Positions 3,215 to 22,531 of a stretch of DNA of 23,835 nucleotides are shown one piece after another. A program made the position numbers and the translations under genes. The stretch's first letter is position 1, and every line of letters begins with the position of its first letter. Source of the stretch: Promethearchaeota archaeon (GTDB lineage: Archaea; Asgardarchaeota; Lokiarchaeia; Sigyniarchaeales; SOKP01); assembly GCA_048939015.1 (NCBI GenBank), contig JBHLPW010000068.1, positions 1-23,835 on the forward strand, written 5' to 3'. The notes below the pieces were generated by a model. That model had not been told where the DNA came from and did no database searches. It was given only the letters and a program-made list of their open reading frames with translations.

Positions 3215-3613
3215 ATGAAGAATCACCCCAATATTGAAGAATTAAAATCAAAAATAAAGCTAGGGATAAAATGTTGGCTGGAATTTGAAAATGCAAGTGT
3301 ATTGGGTTCTGGGTGGGCAGAACTACTGGAAAACATCAAGAAAAATGATGGAGGTTCTCTAACTCAGGCAGCAAAAGAATGTACTCATAAAAAAAAAGAA
3401 GGATATTCTTACAAATATGCTTGGAATATTTTGAAAAGAATTGAAAATCGAACTGGAATGAGTCCTGTAATTACTGGAAAGGGGGGTCGTGGTGGAGGGG
3501 GTTGGGTTAAGTTAAATGAGTGGGGGCTGTATCTATTAGAAACATATAAAAAATACATAAATGAAATTGAAAAAATTGAAAAGAGGCTAGGAGAAACAAA
3601 GAGGCTTAGCTAA
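3215..3613 (+). CDS. ModE-family winged HTH transcriptional regulator (N-terminal domain only)
   Basis: LGSGWAELLENI..GSLTQAAKE..YSYKYAWNILKRIE..GGRGGG..LNEWG matches the ModE wHTH pattern. No molybdate-binding TOBE domains. Confidence 0.85.
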   Translation: MKNHPNIEELKSKIKLGIKCWLEFENASVLGSGWAELLENIKKNDGGSLTQAAKECTHKKKEGYSYKYAWNILKRIENRTGMSPVITGKGGRGGGGWVKLNEWGLYLLETYKKYINEIEKIEKRLGETKRLS

Positions 3614-3703
3614 TAATTATATTTTAATTTCAATAATGATTATTTTCAATAAGCAATTTAGTTACTATATCTTTTTCATAATAATGTAATATGGGGTTTT
3701 ACG

Positions 3704-4129
3704 ATGGAAGATCGTCTAACACAATTAGGTAAAACAAAAGTTTCAGAGATTATGATAAAAGATCCATTAGTTACTTACCCAAAAGAAAAAATAAGTACCA
3801 CTGAACTTTTAATGGTCAGAAAAAATATTAGTGGTCTTCCAGTTGTTAAGGATCGTAATAATAGACAACTTATTGGTATTATTACACAAAGAGATATACG
3901 TCTAGCTAGATTTGCAATGAGTTTAAATTCTCCCAACACAACTGTAAAGGATTTAATGACACCAGATCCATTTACTGTGAATGAAGATGACACTTTAATA
4001 TATGCATTAGAGATAATGCTTAAAAATAAAATTCAACGTTTACCAGTTGTAAATGAAATTAGTGAATTAAAAGGATTAGTAATACAAAATGTGATTTTAA
4101 AAATCCTTCTACAATTTTTTCAAAAATAA
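3704..4129 (+). CDS. CBS-domain pair protein
   Basis: VSEIM..P, ISGLPVV, LIGIITQRDI, VKDLM..P, IQRLPVV. Confidence 0.92.
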   Translation: MEDRLTQLGKTKVSEIMIKDPLVTYPKEKISTTELLMVRKNISGLPVVKDRNNRQLIGIITQRDIRLARFAMSLNSPNTTVKDLMTPDPFTVNEDDTLIYALEIMLKNKIQRLPVVNEISELKGLVIQNVILKILLQFFQK

Positions 4130-4231: not shown

Positions 4232-5746
4232 ATGGCACTACCCTTACCCGGAACACCGATAATAATTGATATTGGATCAGCATATGTTAAGATTGGATTT
4301 TCGGGAGAACCTGGACCTAGGTTTGTGTTTCCCTGCATTACTGGTACTGAAAAGTATAAATCTGTTATGGTCGATGTAAGTGCCAGAAGTATTTATGTTG
4401 GTAACGATGTATCTCGTATGCGTGGCGTTTTAAAAATAAAACATCCTGTAAACCGTGGAGAAATTATGGATTGGGAAAGCTACTACGAGATCTTAAATTA
4501 CATCTTTTATTCATTACTTAGAATAGATAATTTGTCAACCTATCCTGTATTCTATTGCGAAACTCCGTTTATGCATAGAGATACTAAAGAATACATAGCT
4601 AGACTTTTTTTTGAGACTCATCAAGTAAAAAGCTTAATAATGATGCCTACTCCTTTATTATCATTATTTAGCGTTGGATTGACAACAGGGTTAGTAATTG
4701 AAAGTGGAGATGGATTAACTTGGGTTGTTCCAATAGTCAATGGACAAATAATCCAACATGCAGTTCAAAAACTTCCTTTAGCCGGAGTAGATGTAAATCA
4801 AAACCTTAAGAGTCTCTTAATGAGAGAGGGTGTTAGCATTTCTTCTAGTGCTGCAGATGAGATAATTCAAGAAATAAAAGAGAAGAACTGTTATTTTGCT
4901 TTGGATCCTAATATCACTCCAAAAGTAGGGGAAATGTTTAAAGTACCAATGCCAGATGGTTCTACAATTAATGCTCCATCCTATATTCTTTATCAGGCTC
5001 CAGAAGTATTATTTAATCCTGCAATGTTAGGTTATGGGAATATTATGAATATACCTCAGGCAGTTATTGCAAGTATGAGAGCAATAGATAATAATTATTG
5101 GCACGATCTGTTATCTCATATCGTCTTTTCAGGAGGAAATCTTTCATATAATGGTTTCCAAGAACGATTTGAATCAGAGATAGAACCTCTCCTTCCCCAA
5201 TTAGGTAAAATACCCAAACCAGTGGCACCTCTTACGGCAGTAAAAAGTGAATTAATTAAACTACAAGCTGTTGAGATTGTAAAGAAAAAAGAAGATAATT
5301 GCCCACATTGTGGTGCTTTAGTAAATTTAGCTGATGGAAATGAGATATGTCCATCCTGTGGTGGGACATTAGTCTTACCAAAAATTGAAATTGGAACTTT
5401 AGGACAAGTAAATAAAGATATAGGCAAATGTCCTCATTGTAATAAAGATATAGTTGATAAAACATCACTTTTCTGTCCATATTGTGGAAAAGCTATTGAA
5501 GCTTTAGGAAAAGTTGATATCCCCAAAGAGATTACACAAAAAACACCTGCACAAGAATTTTCTGAATTCATGGAAACTGCTAATAAAATCATCAAATTTT
5601 TTGTACCAGATAATTTGCAATATGCAATTTTTACTGGTGCAGCCATCTTAGGAAGTTTGCCTTCTTTCCAACAAATGTTTATTACTTATGATCAATTCCA
5701 AACAAATAGAGAATCGTTATATAGAGATATTAGTGAAATTCTGTAA
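4232..5746 (+). CDS. Actin-family (actin-related) protein with an inserted double zinc ribbon
   Basis: Phosphate-1 DIGSAYVKIGFSGE, phosphate-2 ESGDGLT, IKEKNCYFALD, PDG, APEVLFNP, adenosine motif VFSGG, C-terminal GAAILGSLPSFQQMFIT. Four CPxC pairs lie in the insertion. Confidence 0.92.
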   Translation: MALPLPGTPIIIDIGSAYVKIGFSGEPGPRFVFPCITGTEKYKSVMVDVSARSIYVGNDVSRMRGVLKIKHPVNRGEIMDWESYYEILNYIFYSLLRIDNLSTYPVFYCETPFMHRDTKEYIARLFFETHQVKSLIMMPTPLLSLFSVGLTTGLVIESGDGLTWVVPIVNGQIIQHAVQKLPLAGVDVNQNLKSLLMREGVSISSSAADEIIQEIKEKNCYFALDPNITPKVGEMFKVPMPDGSTINAPSYILYQAPEVLFNPAMLGYGNIMNIPQAVIASMRAIDNNYWHDLLSHIVFSGGNLSYNGFQERFESEIEPLLPQLGKIPKPVAPLTAVKSELIKLQAVEIVKKKEDNCPHCGALVNLADGNEICPSCGGTLVLPKIEIGTLGQVNKDIGKCPHCNKDIVDKTSLFCPYCGKAIEALGKVDIPKEITQKTPAQEFSEFMETANKIIKFFVPDNLQYAIFTGAAILGSLPSFQQMFITYDQFQTNRESLYRDISEIL

Positions 5747-12777: not shown

Positions 12778-12916
12778 AAAAATTACTTTTTTGTAGTTTT
12801 TTTGTATTTTCTTTTATATAAAAATTATAAATTATTATATTTTATATTTTTATAATTCCAAATCAGTTAAATATTGTTAGAGTAATTTTTAAATAAATTT
12901 TAAATATGTGAAGAAA

Positions 12917-13873
12917 ATGTCAGTTAGGATTAAAACGCCAAATTTGGATGACATCTTTGAAAAATGGAAACAAAAAGCTGCAAGGACTGACCGAAAAAAG
13001 ATGGAAAAACAGTTCGGAACCAAAGGGGCTGTATTTTCCTTAGATGCGATAAGTGCAGCAGAATATGTTAAAGATACAATGAAAGAAGCAGCCATTTATT
13101 TTGCTGTTAAAAAATCTCTTGGACCAGCACCTAAAGGAAAAGAAGAAAATTTAGTAACAGCACCAAGAGTCGGTAGAGTACAATATTATTCCTTTAAAGG
13201 AGCAACTAAAATTGATAAAGAAAAATGGAAAGGTGACGAAAAAGTAGCCCAATTTGAGTCAATTCAAGCGGTTCCTTGCAAAACTTGTAGAGGAAGAGGA
13301 TATCTTGAAGATAAATGCAAAACTTGTAAAGGGACAGGAAAGATTGAGGAAACATTTACGGTATTAGTTGGAGAAGAACAAAATAAGGAAAAGAAAGTCT
13401 TTTCATATCCCTGTGGTGCATGTTATGGAACAGGAAACCGATCCGAACCATGCAAAGAGTGTGGTGGTCATAAAAACATGTATAAATATGAAATTCTTCC
13501 AGTTCCTTTTAAAACTGTAGTCACAGGAGTTCCAATTTTACATAGTAGCGCTCAAACCAGATATGAAAAAGAGATCGGAGATGATCTTCATAAGATGATT
13601 GAAGATGTAGAAGGAATACGGTTTAGTGAATTTAAAGAATTAGAATCGAAAGCAGAAGCTTCATTAGGGTACATGAACAAAAATATTAGTAAAACTATAG
13701 GAGCTGCGAGGAATGATTATAAAAAACATGAGAAAGATAAAGATGCTCAAATCCAATCCCAAATTTACCTATTTCCCATGATTCAAATGTTCTGTGAAAC
13801 GAAAAAGGGCTCTAAATTCGAAATCTACAGCTTAGGATCTGGAAATAAGTTTATGATCTATTCAAATTTTTAG
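12917..13873 (+). CDS. DnaJ-type CxxCxGxG zinc-finger protein without a J domain (SSUH2-like)
   Basis: CKTCRGRG, CKTCKGTG, CGACYGTG, CKECGG and no HPD motif. ATG at 12917 preferred over GTG at 12908. Confidence 0.75.
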   Translation: MSVRIKTPNLDDIFEKWKQKAARTDRKKMEKQFGTKGAVFSLDAISAAEYVKDTMKEAAIYFAVKKSLGPAPKGKEENLVTAPRVGRVQYYSFKGATKIDKEKWKGDEKVAQFESIQAVPCKTCRGRGYLEDKCKTCKGTGKIEETFTVLVGEEQNKEKKVFSYPCGACYGTGNRSEPCKECGGHKNMYKYEILPVPFKTVVTGVPILHSSAQTRYEKEIGDDLHKMIEDVEGIRFSEFKELESKAEASLGYMNKNISKTIGAARNDYKKHEKDKDAQIQSQIYLFPMIQMFCETKKGSKFEIYSLGSGNKFMIYSNF

Positions 13874-14666: not shown

Positions 14667-16103
14667 TTAAAGTAATGTAATTAATACATCTAAAGCGTCT
14701 AAAACCTTCTTACCACTTTCAGTTATAAAATAAAACACATTTTTACCTTCTTTTTTTCGGGAAATTAAACCCTTAGATTCTAATTCTTTTAGATGTTGAT
14801 AAATTGCTGCTAAACTTATAGTACCCATAATCTCTTGAATTTTAGTGCCACTTATTCCTTTGATACTCGATAATGAAACTTGAGATAATATTTTCAATTT
14901 TGTAATAATGATTGATCCCTTTCCAGTCGTTTTAGTTTGAGATGAAATTGCTTCTAAGACATATGGTGCTTTTAATCCACTTCCTGTAATTATACAAATA
15001 ATCTTTTCATTAATTCCAAACATATCTTCTCGATTCAATGATTCTAATGCTGCTACTGTTAATGCAGAAGCGGGTTCAGCAAAGATTCCTTCATATCTAA
15101 TTAGTTTATCTATTGAATTCAGAATATTATCCTCAGGAATTGTAATAACTGTACCTCCGCTTTCTCTTATGCACTTAATAGCAAAGTCACTGTATAATGG
15201 CTTTTTTACTAAGATTCCTAAAGCAAGTGATTTTTCGAGATTACGATTTGGGCTGTCAATAATATCTTTTTTGAAAAATGCATCTGCAATAGGAGATAAA
15301 ACTTGAGATTGTATTCCTATTAATTTTGGGATTCTACTAATGACTTTAATATTTAATAACTCATGAAATCCTTTCCATAAACTTACCAATAATTCTCCAC
15401 TCCCCATAGGGATTAAAATCCAATTTGGATCTTCCACTTGCTTAATTAATTCGTAAGCAATGGTTTTTTGGGCTTCAAGAGTAAGTGGATTCAATTCAGC
15501 AGTACCTTGATAGAAATCTTCAATATTTTCTCTTTTTAACATATTTACAATGGCATCATCAACAGTTTTTCCCCTTACTTCTAATTTAGAGTCATATGCT
15601 ATCATTTGTGCTTTTTTACCTACATCGATTATTTCTGGAATGATATTCATACAAGTCATTCCTTCAATAGAAGTATATGCAGCCAATGAAGCACCTTGAT
15701 TACCATTCGAAGCACAAATAATTTTATCATAATCCCAACTCCTCGCATGTGAAGTTAATAATGCTGCAACACGATCCTTAAATGAATTAGTAGGATTTTG
15801 AGTTTCATCTTTGAAGTACAAGGATTTTAATCCTAATTTTTCTCCAAATTTTTTTGATCTTCGACATGGAGTTCCCCCTTCCCCTAAAGATATAATAAAA
15901 GCATCCTTAATATAAGGAACCGTAAATCTACAATCCCAAAATTTACTTAAATTCTCAATTTTAGAGAAATCCTGTTTAAGCGTTTCTTTATTAACTTCAT
16001 ACCACAATATACCATTACATTCAGGGCATTTATGCTGAATAGAGAATAATTCAAACTTTTTTTTACACTCAATACAAGTTAAAATTAGTGGTTTTCTAAT
16101 AAT
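14667..16103 (-). CDS. thrC: Threonine synthase-like PLP enzyme with N-terminal zinc ribbon and C-terminal winged HTH
   Basis: LGEGGTP, NPTNSFKDR (PLP lysine), ASNGNQGAS, PMGSG, EPASA, TGSGLK. The frame stays open upstream of the listed TTG (16007) through CIEC..CPEC to ATT at 16103. Confidence 0.85.
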   Translation of the reverse strand: MIRKPLILTCIECKKKFELFSIQHKCPECNGILWYEVNKETLKQDFSKIENLSKFWDCRFTVPYIKDAFIISLGEGGTPCRRSKKFGEKLGLKSLYFKDETQNPTNSFKDRVAALLTSHARSWDYDKIICASNGNQGASLAAYTSIEGMTCMNIIPEIIDVGKKAQMIAYDSKLEVRGKTVDDAIVNMLKRENIEDFYQGTAELNPLTLEAQKTIAYELIKQVEDPNWILIPMGSGELLVSLWKGFHELLNIKVISRIPKLIGIQSQVLSPIADAFFKKDIIDSPNRNLEKSLALGILVKKPLYSDFAIKCIRESGGTVITIPEDNILNSIDKLIRYEGIFAEPASALTVAALESLNREDMFGINEKIICIITGSGLKAPYVLEAISSQTKTTGKGSIIITKLKILSQVSLSSIKGISGTKIQEIMGTISLAAIYQHLKELESKGLISRKKEGKNVFYFITESGKKVLDALDVLITLL

Positions 16104-16282: not shown

Positions 16283-17038
16283 ATTCTTCTCTGGATTATA
16301 ATATTTAGTATTTTAGGAAGTATTGGTGCTATATTTCTTGCTTATATTTTTCTAAGTTTAAGGAAAATCTTACAAAAATCTCTTGTAACATGCTTGGTAG
16401 CCTATGCAACTGGTACATTATTAGCAGCAGCATCATTGGGAATGATCCCTACAGCCATATCAAAAGCAGGGGATTCAATGCAAATTGTAATGATCTTCTT
16501 TTTAGGAGGGCTTATGTTTTTTTTTATTCTTGAAAAATTAGTGATTTGGCGTCATTGTCATGATGCTGAATGTGTGGTTACAGGTGAAGCTGCTGGACCT
16601 ATTATTCTTATTGGAGATGCTTTCCATAATTTTGTAGATGGAATAGTTATTGCAGCATCTTTTTTGATAAATTTTACTTTTGGTATAGCGATTAGTCTTT
16701 CTGTTATTGCTCATGAACTTCCTCAAGAAGTAGGTGATTTAGCGATTTTAATTGATAAGAATTATTCAAAAAGAAAAGCATTTTTATATAATACTATTTC
16801 GGGGAGTACAACAATTCCTGCTGCTATAATTGGATATTTTGTCTTAGATTTGATCTCCATAGCAATTCCTTTCGTACTTGCGATTTCAGCAGCGAGTTTT
16901 CTTTATATTGCATTATCTGATTTAACACCGGAATTACATCAAAAATTAGGATTAAAACATAGTTTAAGGCAGCTGATTTTAATATTTGCAGGAATATTGA
17001 CTATGATTTTAATCTTTATGTTAAAATCCATATTATAA
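16283..17038 (+). CDS. ZIP-family (ZupT-like) divalent metal transporter, copy 1
   Basis: GDAFHNFVDG (TM4), HELPQEVGD (TM5), YIALSDLTPEL. The in-frame extension to ATT at 16283 aligns end to end with the downstream paralog. Confidence 0.92.
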   Translation: MLLWIIIFSILGSIGAIFLAYIFLSLRKILQKSLVTCLVAYATGTLLAAASLGMIPTAISKAGDSMQIVMIFFLGGLMFFFILEKLVIWRHCHDAECVVTGEAAGPIILIGDAFHNFVDGIVIAASFLINFTFGIAISLSVIAHELPQEVGDLAILIDKNYSKRKAFLYNTISGSTTIPAAIIGYFVLDLISIAIPFVLAISAASFLYIALSDLTPELHQKLGLKHSLRQLILIFAGILTMILIFMLKSIL

Positions 17039-17057
17039 TGAAAATGAGTGATAGACA

Positions 17058-17813
17058 ATGCTGATTTGGATTATTATATTTAGCATTCTTGGGAGTGTTG
17101 GAGCTATTATTATTGCTGCAATTTTTGTGTTCTTAGGTGATAAGATCCAAAAAGCGCTTATTCCTACCCTTATTGCTTTTGCTACGGGGGTTTTATTGGC
17201 TGTTGCGTTTTTAGGTTTAATTCCTGAATCAATTGAAAAAGTTGGAGAACCTCATTTAATTATGCCTTTCATTTTAGGAGGAATCCTCTTTTTCTTTATA
17301 ATGGAAAAGATTGTGATTTGGAGGAATTGTCGTGATAATACCTGTGAGGTTCATTCACATGCTTCTGGTCCAATTATCCTTCTAGGGGATTCTTTACATA
17401 ATCTTACAGACGGAATTGTAATAGCTGCGGCTTTTTTAGGTGGATTGAATCTTGGAATTGTTGCAGGATTGACGATTATAATTCATGAAATATCACATGA
17501 AACAGCAGATTTTGGTATTCTCCTGCATTCAGGGTATTCAAAGAAAAAAGCTTTTGTTTATAATATGATCTCAAGCTTTCCTACTATCCCTGCTTCGATT
17601 CTTTCATTTTTCATATTAGGTGTGCTAGAATCCATTGTCCCATTTTTTTTGGCGATATCAGCAGCAAGTTTCATATACATAGCCCTTTCTGATTTAACTC
17701 CAGATCTCCATAAACACTCAGATTTTAAATATATTATTCGTCAACTAGCAACAATTTTTATTGGAATATTATTAATGGCATTGATTTTATCAATAGGAGG
17801 ACATAATCATTAG
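17058..17813 (+). CDS. ZIP-family (ZupT-like) divalent metal transporter, copy 2
   Basis: GDSLHNLTDG, HEISHETADF, YIALSDLTPDL. Confidence 0.93.
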   Translation: MLIWIIIFSILGSVGAIIIAAIFVFLGDKIQKALIPTLIAFATGVLLAVAFLGLIPESIEKVGEPHLIMPFILGGILFFFIMEKIVIWRNCRDNTCEVHSHASGPIILLGDSLHNLTDGIVIAAAFLGGLNLGIVAGLTIIIHEISHETADFGILLHSGYSKKKAFVYNMISSFPTIPASILSFFILGVLESIVPFFLAISAASFIYIALSDLTPDLHKHSDFKYIIRQLATIFIGILLMALILSIGGHNH

Positions 17814-17849
17814 TTATTTATCTTAATTATTAAAAAATAATGTTATCAG

Positions 17850-18263
17850 ATGTTAGATATTGATTTTCAGGTTTTGAAAGAGCTGTTTAAAAACAGTGCT
17901 TTGAAGGTAGGAGATCTGGCAAAAAAACTTAATCATCCTCATTCAACAGTAGGGAGTTGTGTTAAAAGATTGGAAAACAATGGATATGTAAATTATGAAC
18001 GATATAAACCAGTTTCTCTGACAACAAAAGGAAGAGATCTCACAATTGAGTTAAAACGCCATGCACATCTTCTAGAAATGCTTTTAGTTAATGAACTCGA
18101 AATAGAAGCTGATAATGCTCATGCTGAATGCGAAAAAATCAATTTACTGTTTTCATGTAACATAATCAATAAAATTTGCGAGAGATATGACCATCCAAAA
18201 GAATGTTCTTGTGGCGAGGAGATTTTAAATTCTTCGGAGTGTTTCTGCAAAAAGAATATTTAA
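17850..18263 (+). CDS. DtxR/MntR-family metal-dependent transcriptional regulator
   Basis: wHTH (DLAKKL..STV..VKRLENNGYVNYERYKPVSLTTKG), RHAHLLE.LLV..L, AHAEC, HPKEC..G. Confidence 0.88.
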   Translation: MLDIDFQVLKELFKNSALKVGDLAKKLNHPHSTVGSCVKRLENNGYVNYERYKPVSLTTKGRDLTIELKRHAHLLEMLLVNELEIEADNAHAECEKINLLFSCNIINKICERYDHPKECSCGEEILNSSECFCKKNI

Positions 18264-18846: not shown

Positions 18847-19104
18847 TTAATCGTCATCATCATAATCATCATCATCGTCATCATCATCATCGTCATCATC
18901 ATCATCATCGTCATCATCATCTTCGTCATCATCATCTTCAGCATCTTCAATGATTTCATACTCTTCAGCATCTTTATAACAGTTTTTACAATAAGGTCTT
19001 CCACCTACGTAAATTGCTTTTTTTTTTCGCATTTCCTTTTCGCAATTTTCACAATAAACAATATCTTCATCCTCATCATATCTTCCTATAGCGAACACCT
19101 CCAT
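18847..19104 (-). CDS. Small C4 zinc-finger (LIM-like treble clef) protein with poly-Asp tail
   Basis: CENC-x17-CKNC within a GRPYCKNCY context, followed by more than 30 almost purely acidic residues. Confidence 0.8.
   Translation of the reverse strand: MEVFAIGRYDEDEDIVYCENCEKEMRKKKAIYVGGRPYCKNCYKDAEEYEIIEDAEDDDDEDDDDDDDDDDDDDDDDDDDYDDDD
18850..18949 (-). repeat. Coding (GAT/GAC)n trinucleotide repeat encoding poly-Asp
   Basis: (TCA)n on the + strand with TCG interruptions roughly every 15-18 nt. Confidence 0.9.
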
Positions 19105-20574: not shown

Positions 20575-21573
20575 TTGGAAGGAACGATTAGTTTAAAATT
20601 GGTTTTATTAGGAGAAGCGAATGTAGGAAAAACTTCAATTATTAATTCATATTTAGGAAAAGAATTTCCTGATCAATATTTACCCACAATTGGGAATTAT
20701 ACAGCTAAAAAGGAATATAATATAAAAGAAAAAGATATTATTGTAAATGTTACAGTATGGGATGCCGGAGGTCAAAGATCATTTAATCCCTTTAGTCGTA
20801 CTTTATATACCAATATTGATTGTGCTCTTTTAGTTTTTGATTTAACAAAGCCCAAAGAGACCTTCCTAAATCTAAAAAAGGAATTCTTAGAAAATATTAA
20901 TCAGTATTCCGAAGATGTTGTATCAGTTCTAGTTGGAAATAAAATAGATTTATTAACTAGCAATGAAAAACTTATAATAACATTAAAAGAGCTGATGAGT
21001 AAAAGAGATCATATATATTTAACTTCAGCAAAAACTGGTATAGGTATTATTCAGTGTTTTGAATTATTGATCTATACTTTTTTAAGAAAATCGGAATTAA
21101 TGGATCCAGATCTAGTTCCTAGCAATACATCAAAAGCCTTTTTAAAATTGATTGGGAAGAATGATGAAGAATTAAAGGAACAATTATGGAACTTATCTAA
21201 TATTGATACAGTTTTAGAAAAAGTGAAAATAAAGCCAAAAGTTAAAAAAGAAACCGAAGATGAGAAAGAAATCAAAGAATTGAAATACTATGATTTCCTG
21301 ATACAACAATTAGAAAAAAATGAATCTCAAAAAAATGAAGTTATGGATCAATTTTTAATTAATCTAACAGAGCTTGGAAAAACAATTAATCATATCCAAA
21401 AATCCCATTCTAAATCAGCAGAAAATTTAGTTGAAAGTTTAAAAGATCTCTTTATAACCACTAAGAAAGATTTTGAATCTAATATAGAATTAATATCAAA
21501 ATTAAACATCGAGGAATTTGAATTAGTGAAAATAATATCAAAAGTAAAAGAAGAGCAATTAGCCCAACTTTAA
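20575..21573 (+). CDS. Rab-like small GTPase with long C-terminal helical extension
   Basis: G1 GEANVGKTS, G2 PTIG, G3 WDAGGQ, G4 NKID, G5 SAK, followed by about 160 aa of charged helical sequence. Confidence 0.9.
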   Translation: MEGTISLKLVLLGEANVGKTSIINSYLGKEFPDQYLPTIGNYTAKKEYNIKEKDIIVNVTVWDAGGQRSFNPFSRTLYTNIDCALLVFDLTKPKETFLNLKKEFLENINQYSEDVVSVLVGNKIDLLTSNEKLIITLKELMSKRDHIYLTSAKTGIGIIQCFELLIYTFLRKSELMDPDLVPSNTSKAFLKLIGKNDEELKEQLWNLSNIDTVLEKVKIKPKVKKETEDEKEIKELKYYDFLIQQLEKNESQKNEVMDQFLINLTELGKTINHIQKSHSKSAENLVESLKDLFITTKKDFESNIELISKLNIEEFELVKIISKVKEEQLAQL

Positions 21574-21616
21574 TAGAACTCTTACCTAAAAAAAAAAGAA
21601 TATATAAGCGAAATGG

Positions 21617-22531
21617 ATGAATAAAATGTCAGAAGAAATTAATTTAAAAGATTATCAAAAGCTAAAGGAACAATTAAACAAACTTGATCAAAAATCTACT
21701 GAACAATTTAAAAAGATTCCACAAAATGTAAATGAACAGGTCAATAAATTAGATAAAAAATTAACGGATCAATTAAATAATTTAAACAGGAATATAAGCG
21801 ATAATATTAATTCAATCGAGAAGAAATTATCTGAACAATTCAATAAATTTGATCAAAAAATGAATGAACAGATAACACAATTAGATCAGAAAGTAGATAC
21901 ACAAGGAGATATAATTAATAGGAAAATTGAAGATTTAGTGAATACTTTTGAAGAGGAATTAAAAGAAAAATTCACTACCCTTGATAAGAAATTGGAAGAT
22001 AATTTAAAAGATATTAGGTTTGAAATATCAGAAAAATTAGAAACTACTAATTTAAAATTAAATAATCATGTAGTTAATTTTGAAAATGAAATAAACACTT
22101 TTAATAAAAATATAAAAGATCTTAAGAAAGAATTTTTTGATAGACTAAACGCTTTTAGACAAGAATTTGATACTAAAGAGGATGTACTTAGAGACATGTT
22201 CAAAAAATTCAATGAAGAAACAATAGAATATCAAAATAATCTTAAACCAGTACTAGAGGATCTTAAAAGTGAGCAGGATTTAGTTAAGATAACTGTGGAT
22301 GTACTTAAAAAGCAAATACACGAAAGTGCTAAAGAATGGATTGATGAAGAGATAAAACTGGCTTGTAAAAACAAAGAGAGAGAGATTCTAATGAATTTAT
22401 GGATCGATGAAATGAAAAGTATAATTAATAACTTAGACAATTTGAAAAAGTTACATCCAAAAGAATTAAAACTTCATATTAATGAAATTTCAAGCACAAT
22501 TGAATCCTTTAAACAAAAATTCATAAAATGA
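21617..22531 (+). CDS. Coiled-coil protein with 11-residue (hendecad) repeats
   Basis: About 13 consecutive 11-mers such as EQLNKLDQKST, EQVNKLDKKLT, EQFNKFDQKMN. Confidence 0.75.
   Translation: MNKMSEEINLKDYQKLKEQLNKLDQKSTEQFKKIPQNVNEQVNKLDKKLTDQLNNLNRNISDNINSIEKKLSEQFNKFDQKMNEQITQLDQKVDTQGDIINRKIEDLVNTFEEELKEKFTTLDKKLEDNLKDIRFEISEKLETTNLKLNNHVVNFENEINTFNKNIKDLKKEFFDRLNAFRQEFDTKEDVLRDMFKKFNEETIEYQNNLKPVLEDLKSEQDLVKITVDVLKKQIHESAKEWIDEEIKLACKNKEREILMNLWIDEMKSIINNLDNLKKLHPKELKLHINEISSTIESFKQKFIK

Follow-up and report, generated by a model that had tools for sequence, protein, structure and literature searches.

A tailed Ras-type GTPase and a hendecad coiled-coil protein encoded side by side in one family of Lokiarchaeia

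In the 23,835-nucleotide stretch of archaeal DNA analysed here (the window), a small GTPase with a long helical tail is encoded directly upstream of a protein that is largely a coiled coil built on an 11-residue (hendecad) repeat. The anatomy of the two proteins, the linkage of their genes, their loss together and the modularity of the tail are direct observations, and because the switch and the rod are kept or lost together they very probably constitute one switch-and-scaffold unit. A functional link between the two genes is highly likely, and direct binding of the GTPase to its partner is probable. For the whole mechanism that we favour, in which a soluble GTP switch would be held by an adaptor on an oligomeric rod of variable length and its nucleotide state would control assembly or loading, we estimate a probability of roughly 0.45.

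The window comes from a 4.86-Mb genome whose close relatives are Promethearchaeota (Lokiarchaeia) MAGs such as Loki_b32. The features of the gene pair are as follows.

20575-21573, + strand: tailed GTPase gene, 332 aa, with a TTG start common to most orthologues
20575..21084, + strand: Ras-superfamily (RasL-type) G domain, residues 1-170, predicted from the Pfam Ras match and motifs
21085..21219, + strand: tail subdomain 1, approximately residues 171-215, with AlphaFold helices 185-193, 197-201 and 210-216 after helix 5
21220..21267, + strand: flexible Lys/Glu-rich linker, residues 216-231, pLDDT below 50 and the least conserved segment (0.25)
21256..21573, + strand: tail helical hairpin, AlphaFold helices 228-277 and 282-331, with a conserved turn, no Cys and no transmembrane segment
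21613..21628, + strand: probable ribosome-binding site and probable start (ATG 21626) of the partner gene, inferred from orthologue starts and the Atlas record
21617-22531, + strand: coiled-coil partner gene, 304 aa as called, 43 nt after the GTPase gene
21644..22204, + strand: hendecad coiled-coil stalk, residues ~10-196, from period, self-similarity and indels
22166..22531, + strand: conserved C-terminal part (head), residues ~184-304, with a helical hairpin end and invariant Trp and Pro

The earlier note had described two genes 43 nt apart; their coordinates are confirmed, and both open reading frames lie on the same strand. The true start of the partner is probably the second ATG, at 21626, because orthologues begin there behind a GGTGA-type ribosome-binding site; this would give a protein of 301 aa and a gap of 52 nt. 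GGTGA lies 5-6 nt ahead of ATG, ATA, ATT or ATC in partner orthologues, at the position aligned with the second ATG, and the Atlas record of the partner begins at residue 4 of the called frame. The usual start behind GGTGA in the orthologues is ATA, ATT or ATC (31 of 50 scored), and genome-wide, near ORF starts, GGTGA with a spacing of 5-6 nt is followed by ATA or ATT 35 times and by ATG 17 times. Non-AUG (AUH) initiation may, on these counts, be common in this family, and if so would cause gene callers to truncate proteins. A scan for sigma-70 promoters and terminators, a model that is wrong for archaea, gave results at chance level.

Several other genes of the window carry features worth recording. 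An actin-family domain (residues 9-325, Pfam E 4e-67) is fused to C-terminal zinc ribbons at 4232-5746 (+), and a highly conserved 321-aa protein at 12908-13873 (+), 83% in relatives, has a DnaJ-type Cys-rich zinc-finger region with no J domain match. A PLP-dependent enzyme (PALP) with a fused C-terminal winged-helix domain lies at 14667-16007 (-). At 16394-18263 (+) two ZIP metal transporter genes stand in tandem ahead of a DtxR-type repressor gene, where the relatives examined have one ZIP gene. An 85-aa ORF at 18847-19104 (-), conserved in at least one relative, combines two CxxC pairs with a long poly-Asp tail.

The G domain of the tailed GTPase has the sequence hallmarks of a GTP switch. 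Pfam Ras matches residues 8-167 with 105.9 bits against a cut-off of 21.6 (E 2e-30), and the motifs lie at G13-T20 (G1), T38 (G2), D63-G66 followed by Q67 (G3), N122-D125 (G4) and S151-K153 (G5). Among 66 orthologues G1-G5 are invariant or nearly so, the catalytic Gln of switch II (Gln67 here) is kept in 63, and a Cys is found in the last six residues of none, which bears out the original description of a complete G1-G5 domain without a C-terminal Cys prenylation motif. Judged from its sequence, the protein is a Ras-superfamily switch of the RasL type for which GTP binding and hydrolysis are predicted. The best solved matches of the G domain are Rab7 and other Rabs, by sequence and by fold, and the best Foldseek and VIA matches of the GTPase are Rab/Ras proteins (Z 19.2, rmsd 2.5 over 167 residues). 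The term 'Rab-like' used in the earlier note thus holds for the fold, but it fails for the RabF motifs: scored against the RabF consensus of the literature, mean matches over 78 rows were 2.0/5 for F1, 2.3/5 for F2, 1.0/6 for F3, 0.7/5 for F4 and 3.2/6 for F5. Because agreement with these motifs is poor, and poorest for F3 and F4, we class the GTPase as RasL-type and not as a Rab. A eukaryotic-type Rab was rejected on the same motifs, on the missing prenylation Cys and on a tail that is structured, not hypervariable; in a published tree no Asgard sequence is sister to Rabs.

The genome encodes approximately 80 small-GTPase domains. In a tree with its GTPases the tailed ones form their own clade (support 100/99), and switches I and II are unlike those of the other small-GTPase domains. 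Mean identity in the subfamily is 0.71 in switch I and 0.78 in switch II, against 0.49 for the whole G domain. Because the switch regions are the most conserved and are subfamily-specific, these sequences point to a dedicated binding partner for them.

The tail occurs on only one of the genome's small-GTPase domains. The helical extension of about 160 aa described at first reading is borne out by the AlphaFold model, where residues ~170-332 are helical with a mean pLDDT of 80, the low-confidence linker excepted. Searches of Pfam, PDB sequences and Atlas features gave no significant family for the tail, and whole-model fold searches of the GTPase covered essentially the G domain alone. Subdomain 1 stays with the G domain in two genomes (G086 and G087) that have lost the partner gene, and is also found in the stand-alone tail protein of locus L138; the hairpin is the candidate partner-binding element. 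The tail hairpin and the hairpin of the partner can be aligned turn to turn with a probability of 0.8%, and no paralogy is claimed. A supposed stand-alone tail, P0071, proved to be a gene broken inside the G domain. In genus g23 an extra stand-alone hairpin ORF of ~80 aa lies between GTPase and partner (L049:3451-3687 + and L051:~3520-3740 +), and in some GTPases a further long Lys/Pro-rich stretch follows, with a small Trp-containing domain at its end (L027:2455-3747 -, L062:2522-3712 +, L152:5445-7390 -). A structure search of the ESM Atlas returned a Thorarchaeota cluster of 366-aa Ras-family proteins that aligns with residues 1-314 of the model (TM 0.52, 216 aligned) and is possibly another type of tailed GTPase.

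An analogy with dynamin and septin GTPases had been drawn in the earlier note, and it is not supported: in both sequence and fold the G domain comes nearest to Rab/Ras, as an ordinary Ras-type switch does, and no dynamin- or septin-type G domain family was matched in Pfam at E up to 0.1. Pfam Roc also matches the G domain, and Roco structures align with the GTPase over that domain only; a Roco (Roc-COR) assignment was rejected since the full-length protein gave no COR match and COR was not among the families listed for 40 tails. It is highly improbable that the GTPase self-oligomerizes through its tail in a septin-, dynamin- or Roc-COR-like manner with the partner as an accessory filament component. 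A long hairpin on a flexible linker could self-associate, and the Roc match is in keeping with such a scheme, but the tail itself has no match to the COR, septin or dynamin families, is encoded on its own in a distant relative, and has its hairpin dropped along with the partner.

The AlphaFold model of the full-length partner monomer is a single long helix with a terminal hairpin. Across residues 10-190 the hydrophobic period is 3.65, a value reached by 0 of 2000 shuffles, and power is 6.1 at 3.67 versus 0.2 at 3.5. Self-similarity peaks at lags of 11, 22, 33 and 44, and differences in stalk length are multiples of 11 in all 25 of the sequences scored. Each hendecad has three hydrophobic positions spaced 4-4-3 and one Asn/Gln position, giving a narrow stripe flanked by Lys on one side and Asp/Glu on the other. 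The all-helical repeat protein of 304 aa that had been proposed is accordingly upheld as helical and hendecad, but the repeat is confined to residues ~10-196 and the length is probably 301 aa. Across the family, open frames of the partner range from ~170 to 350 aa. Its final ~120 aa contain no repeat and form the most conserved part, with an identity of 0.60 in residues 251-304; a short N-terminal motif is likewise conserved in many members. No significant Pfam, PDB sequence or Foldseek match was found for the head, which has 68 clusters among 1.84 billion representatives, and Atlas feature matches of the partner to FAM81B (0.83) and SF-assemblin (0.79) fell under the usable level and were set aside. 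Partners of genus g28 (L053, L059, L066, L068) have Pro-punctuated repeats of other spacing, with ~24 residues between prolines in L059, and the hendecad stalk is therefore not universal in the family.

Pfam Apolipoprotein matches the partner (E 9e-15), and with the 11/22-residue periodicity this could suggest an apolipoprotein-like lipid binder made of amphipathic 11-mers whose loading onto lipid the GTPase regulates. We regard this as very unlikely. The match scores 55.3 bits against a curated gathering cut-off of 90, and the regular Pro punctuation is absent from the window's partner. Class A lipid-binding helices have Lys on both flanks, whereas the narrow stripe seen here, with Lys on one flank and acidic residues on the other, departs from that pattern and would be more readily explained by a parallel coiled coil than by a helix that binds lipid.

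The case that the two proteins belong together rests on the genomic pattern. Among 71 loci read in 12 genera of a single Lokiarchaeia family, 69 have the tailed GTPase or its tail directly upstream of the partner, and the two exceptions are cut off by contig ends; the genomes are kin and background synteny is appreciable, so that these counts describe a pattern and not independent trials. Flanking genes vary from genus to genus. Of all other neighbours, the one retained most widely is seen in 10 of 13 groups and in most cases is encoded on the opposite strand, and a PfkB gene and a nitronate-monooxygenase-like gene stand beside the pair only in part of genus g1. Conserved synteny across genomes, the check that the earlier note had put forward, is thus found while the flanks change.

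The presence and absence of the genes tell a similar story. By head profile the partner, nearly always single-copy, is present in 103 of 134 family genomes and in 12 of 13 genera. Both genes occur in 102 genomes, neither in 22 (nine of which are at least 90% complete), one genome has the partner with a tail fragment at a contig edge, and nine have the GTPase only. Six of these nine are explained by a contig edge or assembly gap, and in another, G153, an in-frame deletion has fused both genes (L151:3362-3829 -), so that the first 114 profile positions of the GTPase run straight into the final 41 residues of the partner. In the remaining two, G086 and G087, contigs and GTPase motifs are intact and the hairpin and the partner are both lost; the two are congeners and probably record one loss event. 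Two complete, divergent copies of the module occur in G093 (L041 and L062) in differing contexts, for which paralogy, transfer or bin contamination are possible.

Outside the family, no convincing match to the partner was found in other Asgard families among 400 genomes, in searches that scored the top candidates per genome and may miss distant forms. Of the weak matches, the two inspected were dismissed: the one in G046 lies within an unrelated enzyme-like ORF, and P0068 is unrelated too; G042 and G307 also gave weak matches. The single-contig genomes G044 and G055 gave no match to the module. Absent from near-complete genomes and found in only one family among the 400 Asgard genomes, the module is therefore dispensable and not demonstrably ancestral. 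In the loci read we recognized no ESCRT genes, and found no cargo or third partner of the module.

A separate line of evidence is provided by two distant partners recovered in a search of 1.84 billion representatives. In GCA_054386635.1 the gene order is a GTPase of 174 aa, a protein of 181 aa and the partner, and a second contig carries the end of the same middle gene followed by the partner. The 181-aa product of GCA_054386635.1 matches the tail profile with 24 bits (E 3.5e-9 among three sequences), and in an unrooted tree with 58 paralogues of the window's genome the GTPase of GCA_054386635.1 is sister to the tailed clade (100/97). Identity to the distant partner is no more than 15-19% across the conserved part and the flanks differ, yet the gene order is kept; a search with one such partner, P0064, matched only itself. 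Because GTPase, tail and partner occur there as three genes, the tail is an independent adaptor unit: as judged from these sequences, an adaptor domain fused to the GTPase here and separately encoded in a distant relative. Synteny, co-loss, loss of the hairpin with the partner and the split form together support the proposal that this is a two-gene module whose GTPase tail works with the partner.

These patterns also bear on the simplest alternative, that the genes are unlinked in function and are neighbours through inherited gene order. All genomes with the fused form come from a single family, and certain unrelated neighbours are likewise retained, in 7 to 10 of 13 groups, as such inheritance would have it. 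No other neighbour is constant, however; the genes are jointly absent from many genomes, the hairpin disappears with the partner, and the order is retained in a relative with a strongly diverged partner and other flanks. This explanation is largely refuted, and we leave it only a slight chance.

We submitted two copies of partner residues 162-304 with the full GTPase, GTP and Mg as a single complex prediction job. The score was 0.47, compared with 0.19 for the best of three controls; runs agreed in at least 85% of contacts and partner pLDDT was at least 76. In a calibration whose counts apply only roughly here, 58 of 80 solved complexes attained the mark, as did 2 of 110 mismatched pairs; of these, only seven solved complexes but both mismatched pairs scored 0.60 or under. 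The model is weakly in favour of the direct co-assembly of GTPase tail and partner that the earlier note had suggested, but it returned no interface, and for that reason a contact between hairpin and head is suggested by the gene-loss patterns by themselves.

The same score is compatible with an unlikely, different role for the partner, that of a dedicated GTPase regulator (a coiled-coil GEF, as Sec2/Rabin8 is, or an allosteric GAP, as IFT81/74 is for RabL2) whose stalk mainly oligomerizes the head and builds no larger scaffold. Genes are paired one to one, switch II is unlike that of the genome's other GTPases and the catalytic Gln is kept, all of which a regulator would account for; a coiled coil of 70 residues suffices to bind RabL2-GTP and speed its hydrolysis (PMC10505919). 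Such a role leaves a stalk of up to ~200 residues unexplained, and the motif-intact GTPase outlives the partner in G086 and G087. Regulation by the partner and the scaffold mechanism that we prefer are not mutually exclusive.

Neither protein has a recognizable membrane anchor as judged by transmembrane segments, lipidation Cys and lipid-binding Pfam domains at cut-off. In the GTPase, helix 5 of the G domain makes up the sole hydrophobic window and is not a transmembrane segment, and the best 19-residue hydropathy of the partner, 0.33, likewise indicates none. A tether or membrane-shaping role, as entertained in the earlier note, is unsupported for this reason, and we found no positive evidence for it. 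A GTP-controlled role of the rod in bridging or shaping membranes, perhaps together with a 484-aa membrane-anchored coiled coil, is distinctly unlikely. Rod length and variable stalk are tether-like, and the last partner helix is moderately amphipathic (moment 0.49, net +1), so that peripheral membrane binding is conceivable. Against this, the 66 GTPases lack a C-terminal Cys, and the Asgard Rab-like proteins studied so far show no membrane targeting (PMC10933270).

The 484-aa coiled coil, a tail-anchored rod, ends in a hydrophobic C-terminal hairpin and is encoded at the start of contig C35 (L159:429-1895 +). It is very conserved (89% to the copy in G005), and of the 161 genomes of the class 135 have it. 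Within genus g1 many genomes carry it at most ~3 kb downstream of the pair, the proximity that a tether would favour, but it is absent from the 4-kb flanks in the other 11 genera, is present in other families of the order, and occurs in genomes without the module (G084, G092 and G143). We rejected it as a core part of the module, since it is widespread in the order and module-independent and adjoins the pair only in part of one genus.

In the mechanism that we prefer, the module would consist of a Ras-type GTP switch, a helical adaptor and a homo-oligomeric hendecad rod with a conserved head. The partner would form a parallel oligomeric coiled coil serving as spacer or scaffold, ~40 nm long here at 1.5 Å per residue, with its specific function located in the C-terminal head. 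Subdomain 1 of the tail would pack against the G domain; the hairpin, carried by the flexible linker, would dock on the C-terminal part of the partner, so that the GTPase is held on the rod. The subfamily-specific switch regions would then read out GTP or GDP and bind the rod head or a third protein. In this way the GTP cycle may control assembly or loading of a soluble scaffold, as in the case of unprenylated Rab-like GTPases on IFT81/74.

Asgard genomes have dozens of Ras-like GTPases, and pairing these with regulators or effectors on the basis of gene layout is described as difficult (PMC10933270). For one Asgard Ras-like GTPase, a specific partner is named here by gene order, co-loss and the split form. 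We put forward, as a tentative and rather doubtful generalization, that a Ras-like GTPase controls the assembly of a length-tunable hendecad scaffold or filament through a dedicated adaptor, and that this is the first genetically matched Asgard small GTPase/coiled-coil effector pair, paralleling the logic of eukaryotic Rabs and their effectors at a stage before lipid anchoring. Because both proteins look soluble, the question of Asgard GTPases and coiled-coil effectors becomes directly testable in vitro. Since the module has so far turned up only in one family and in one further, unplaced lineage, it illustrates the capabilities of Asgard GTPases and not what the eukaryotic ancestor contained. 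No description of the GTPase-tail/coiled-coil pair was found in the open-access literature, the part of the literature searched, which agrees with its proposal as an undescribed Asgard system.

Asgard RasL or 'Rab-like' GTPases have been described before (Surkont and Pereira-Leal, 2016, PMC4915359; Thor-Rab, Tran et al., 2024, PMC10933270; the RasL clade, bioRxiv 10.1101/2024.02.28.582541). They have short C-termini, are unprenylated and have well-conserved RabF motifs, and GTPase genes of MK-D1 generally lie outside operons with roadblock, longin or TRAPPC3 genes (PMC4915359, PMC10933270). The tailed GTPase resembles them in its Rab-closest Ras fold, its G1-G5 motifs, its lack of a prenylation Cys and its many paralogues per genome; unlike them, it is extended by an adaptor of 160 aa and accompanied by a fixed partner gene, and its RabF3/F4 motifs diverge.

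The nearest working analogy, by inference, would be the docking of RabL2, IFT22 and IFT27 on the IFT81-IFT74 coiled coil, which involves nucleotide-dependent and nucleotide-independent contacts and in which the coiled coil is both effector and allosteric GAP for RabL2 (PMC10505919). We detected no sequence homology to IFT81-IFT74; the archaeal rod is a single hendecad protein, its GTPase carries its own adaptor, and there is no context of cilium or microtubule transport. Like eukaryotic Rabs with golgin or EEA1-type tethers, the module pairs a small GTPase with a long coiled coil that has a conserved terminal domain, but it has no prenylation, transmembrane segment or lipid-binding domain, its GTPase is not a Rab by motif, and its stalk is hendecad where golgin/EEA1-type stalks are heptad.

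Extension of a small G domain by a C-terminal interaction domain has precedents in Arl13B, with a coiled-coil tail, and in the Rag GTPases, with a roadblock domain. A fold search of the GTPase returned both (Arl13B 4m9q, Z 15.0; Rag 8yl2, Z 16.3), in each case over the G domain only, and the module differs from them in an all-alpha tail that is not a roadblock and in a G domain of Ras/Rab type, not Arf or Rag. The partner, a long coiled coil with a terminal helical hairpin, in turn resembles in outline the stalk-plus-steadiness-box proteins of ESCRT-I (Vps23/Vps37) and the Asgard CC-SB proteins (PMC11188069); in sequence searches Vps23_core, Mod_r and Vps28 were not among the families listed for 78 partner members. 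Compared with all of these systems, the architecture is, as far as its sequences indicate, the known logic of a GTPase and a coiled coil carried out with two domains of no known family.
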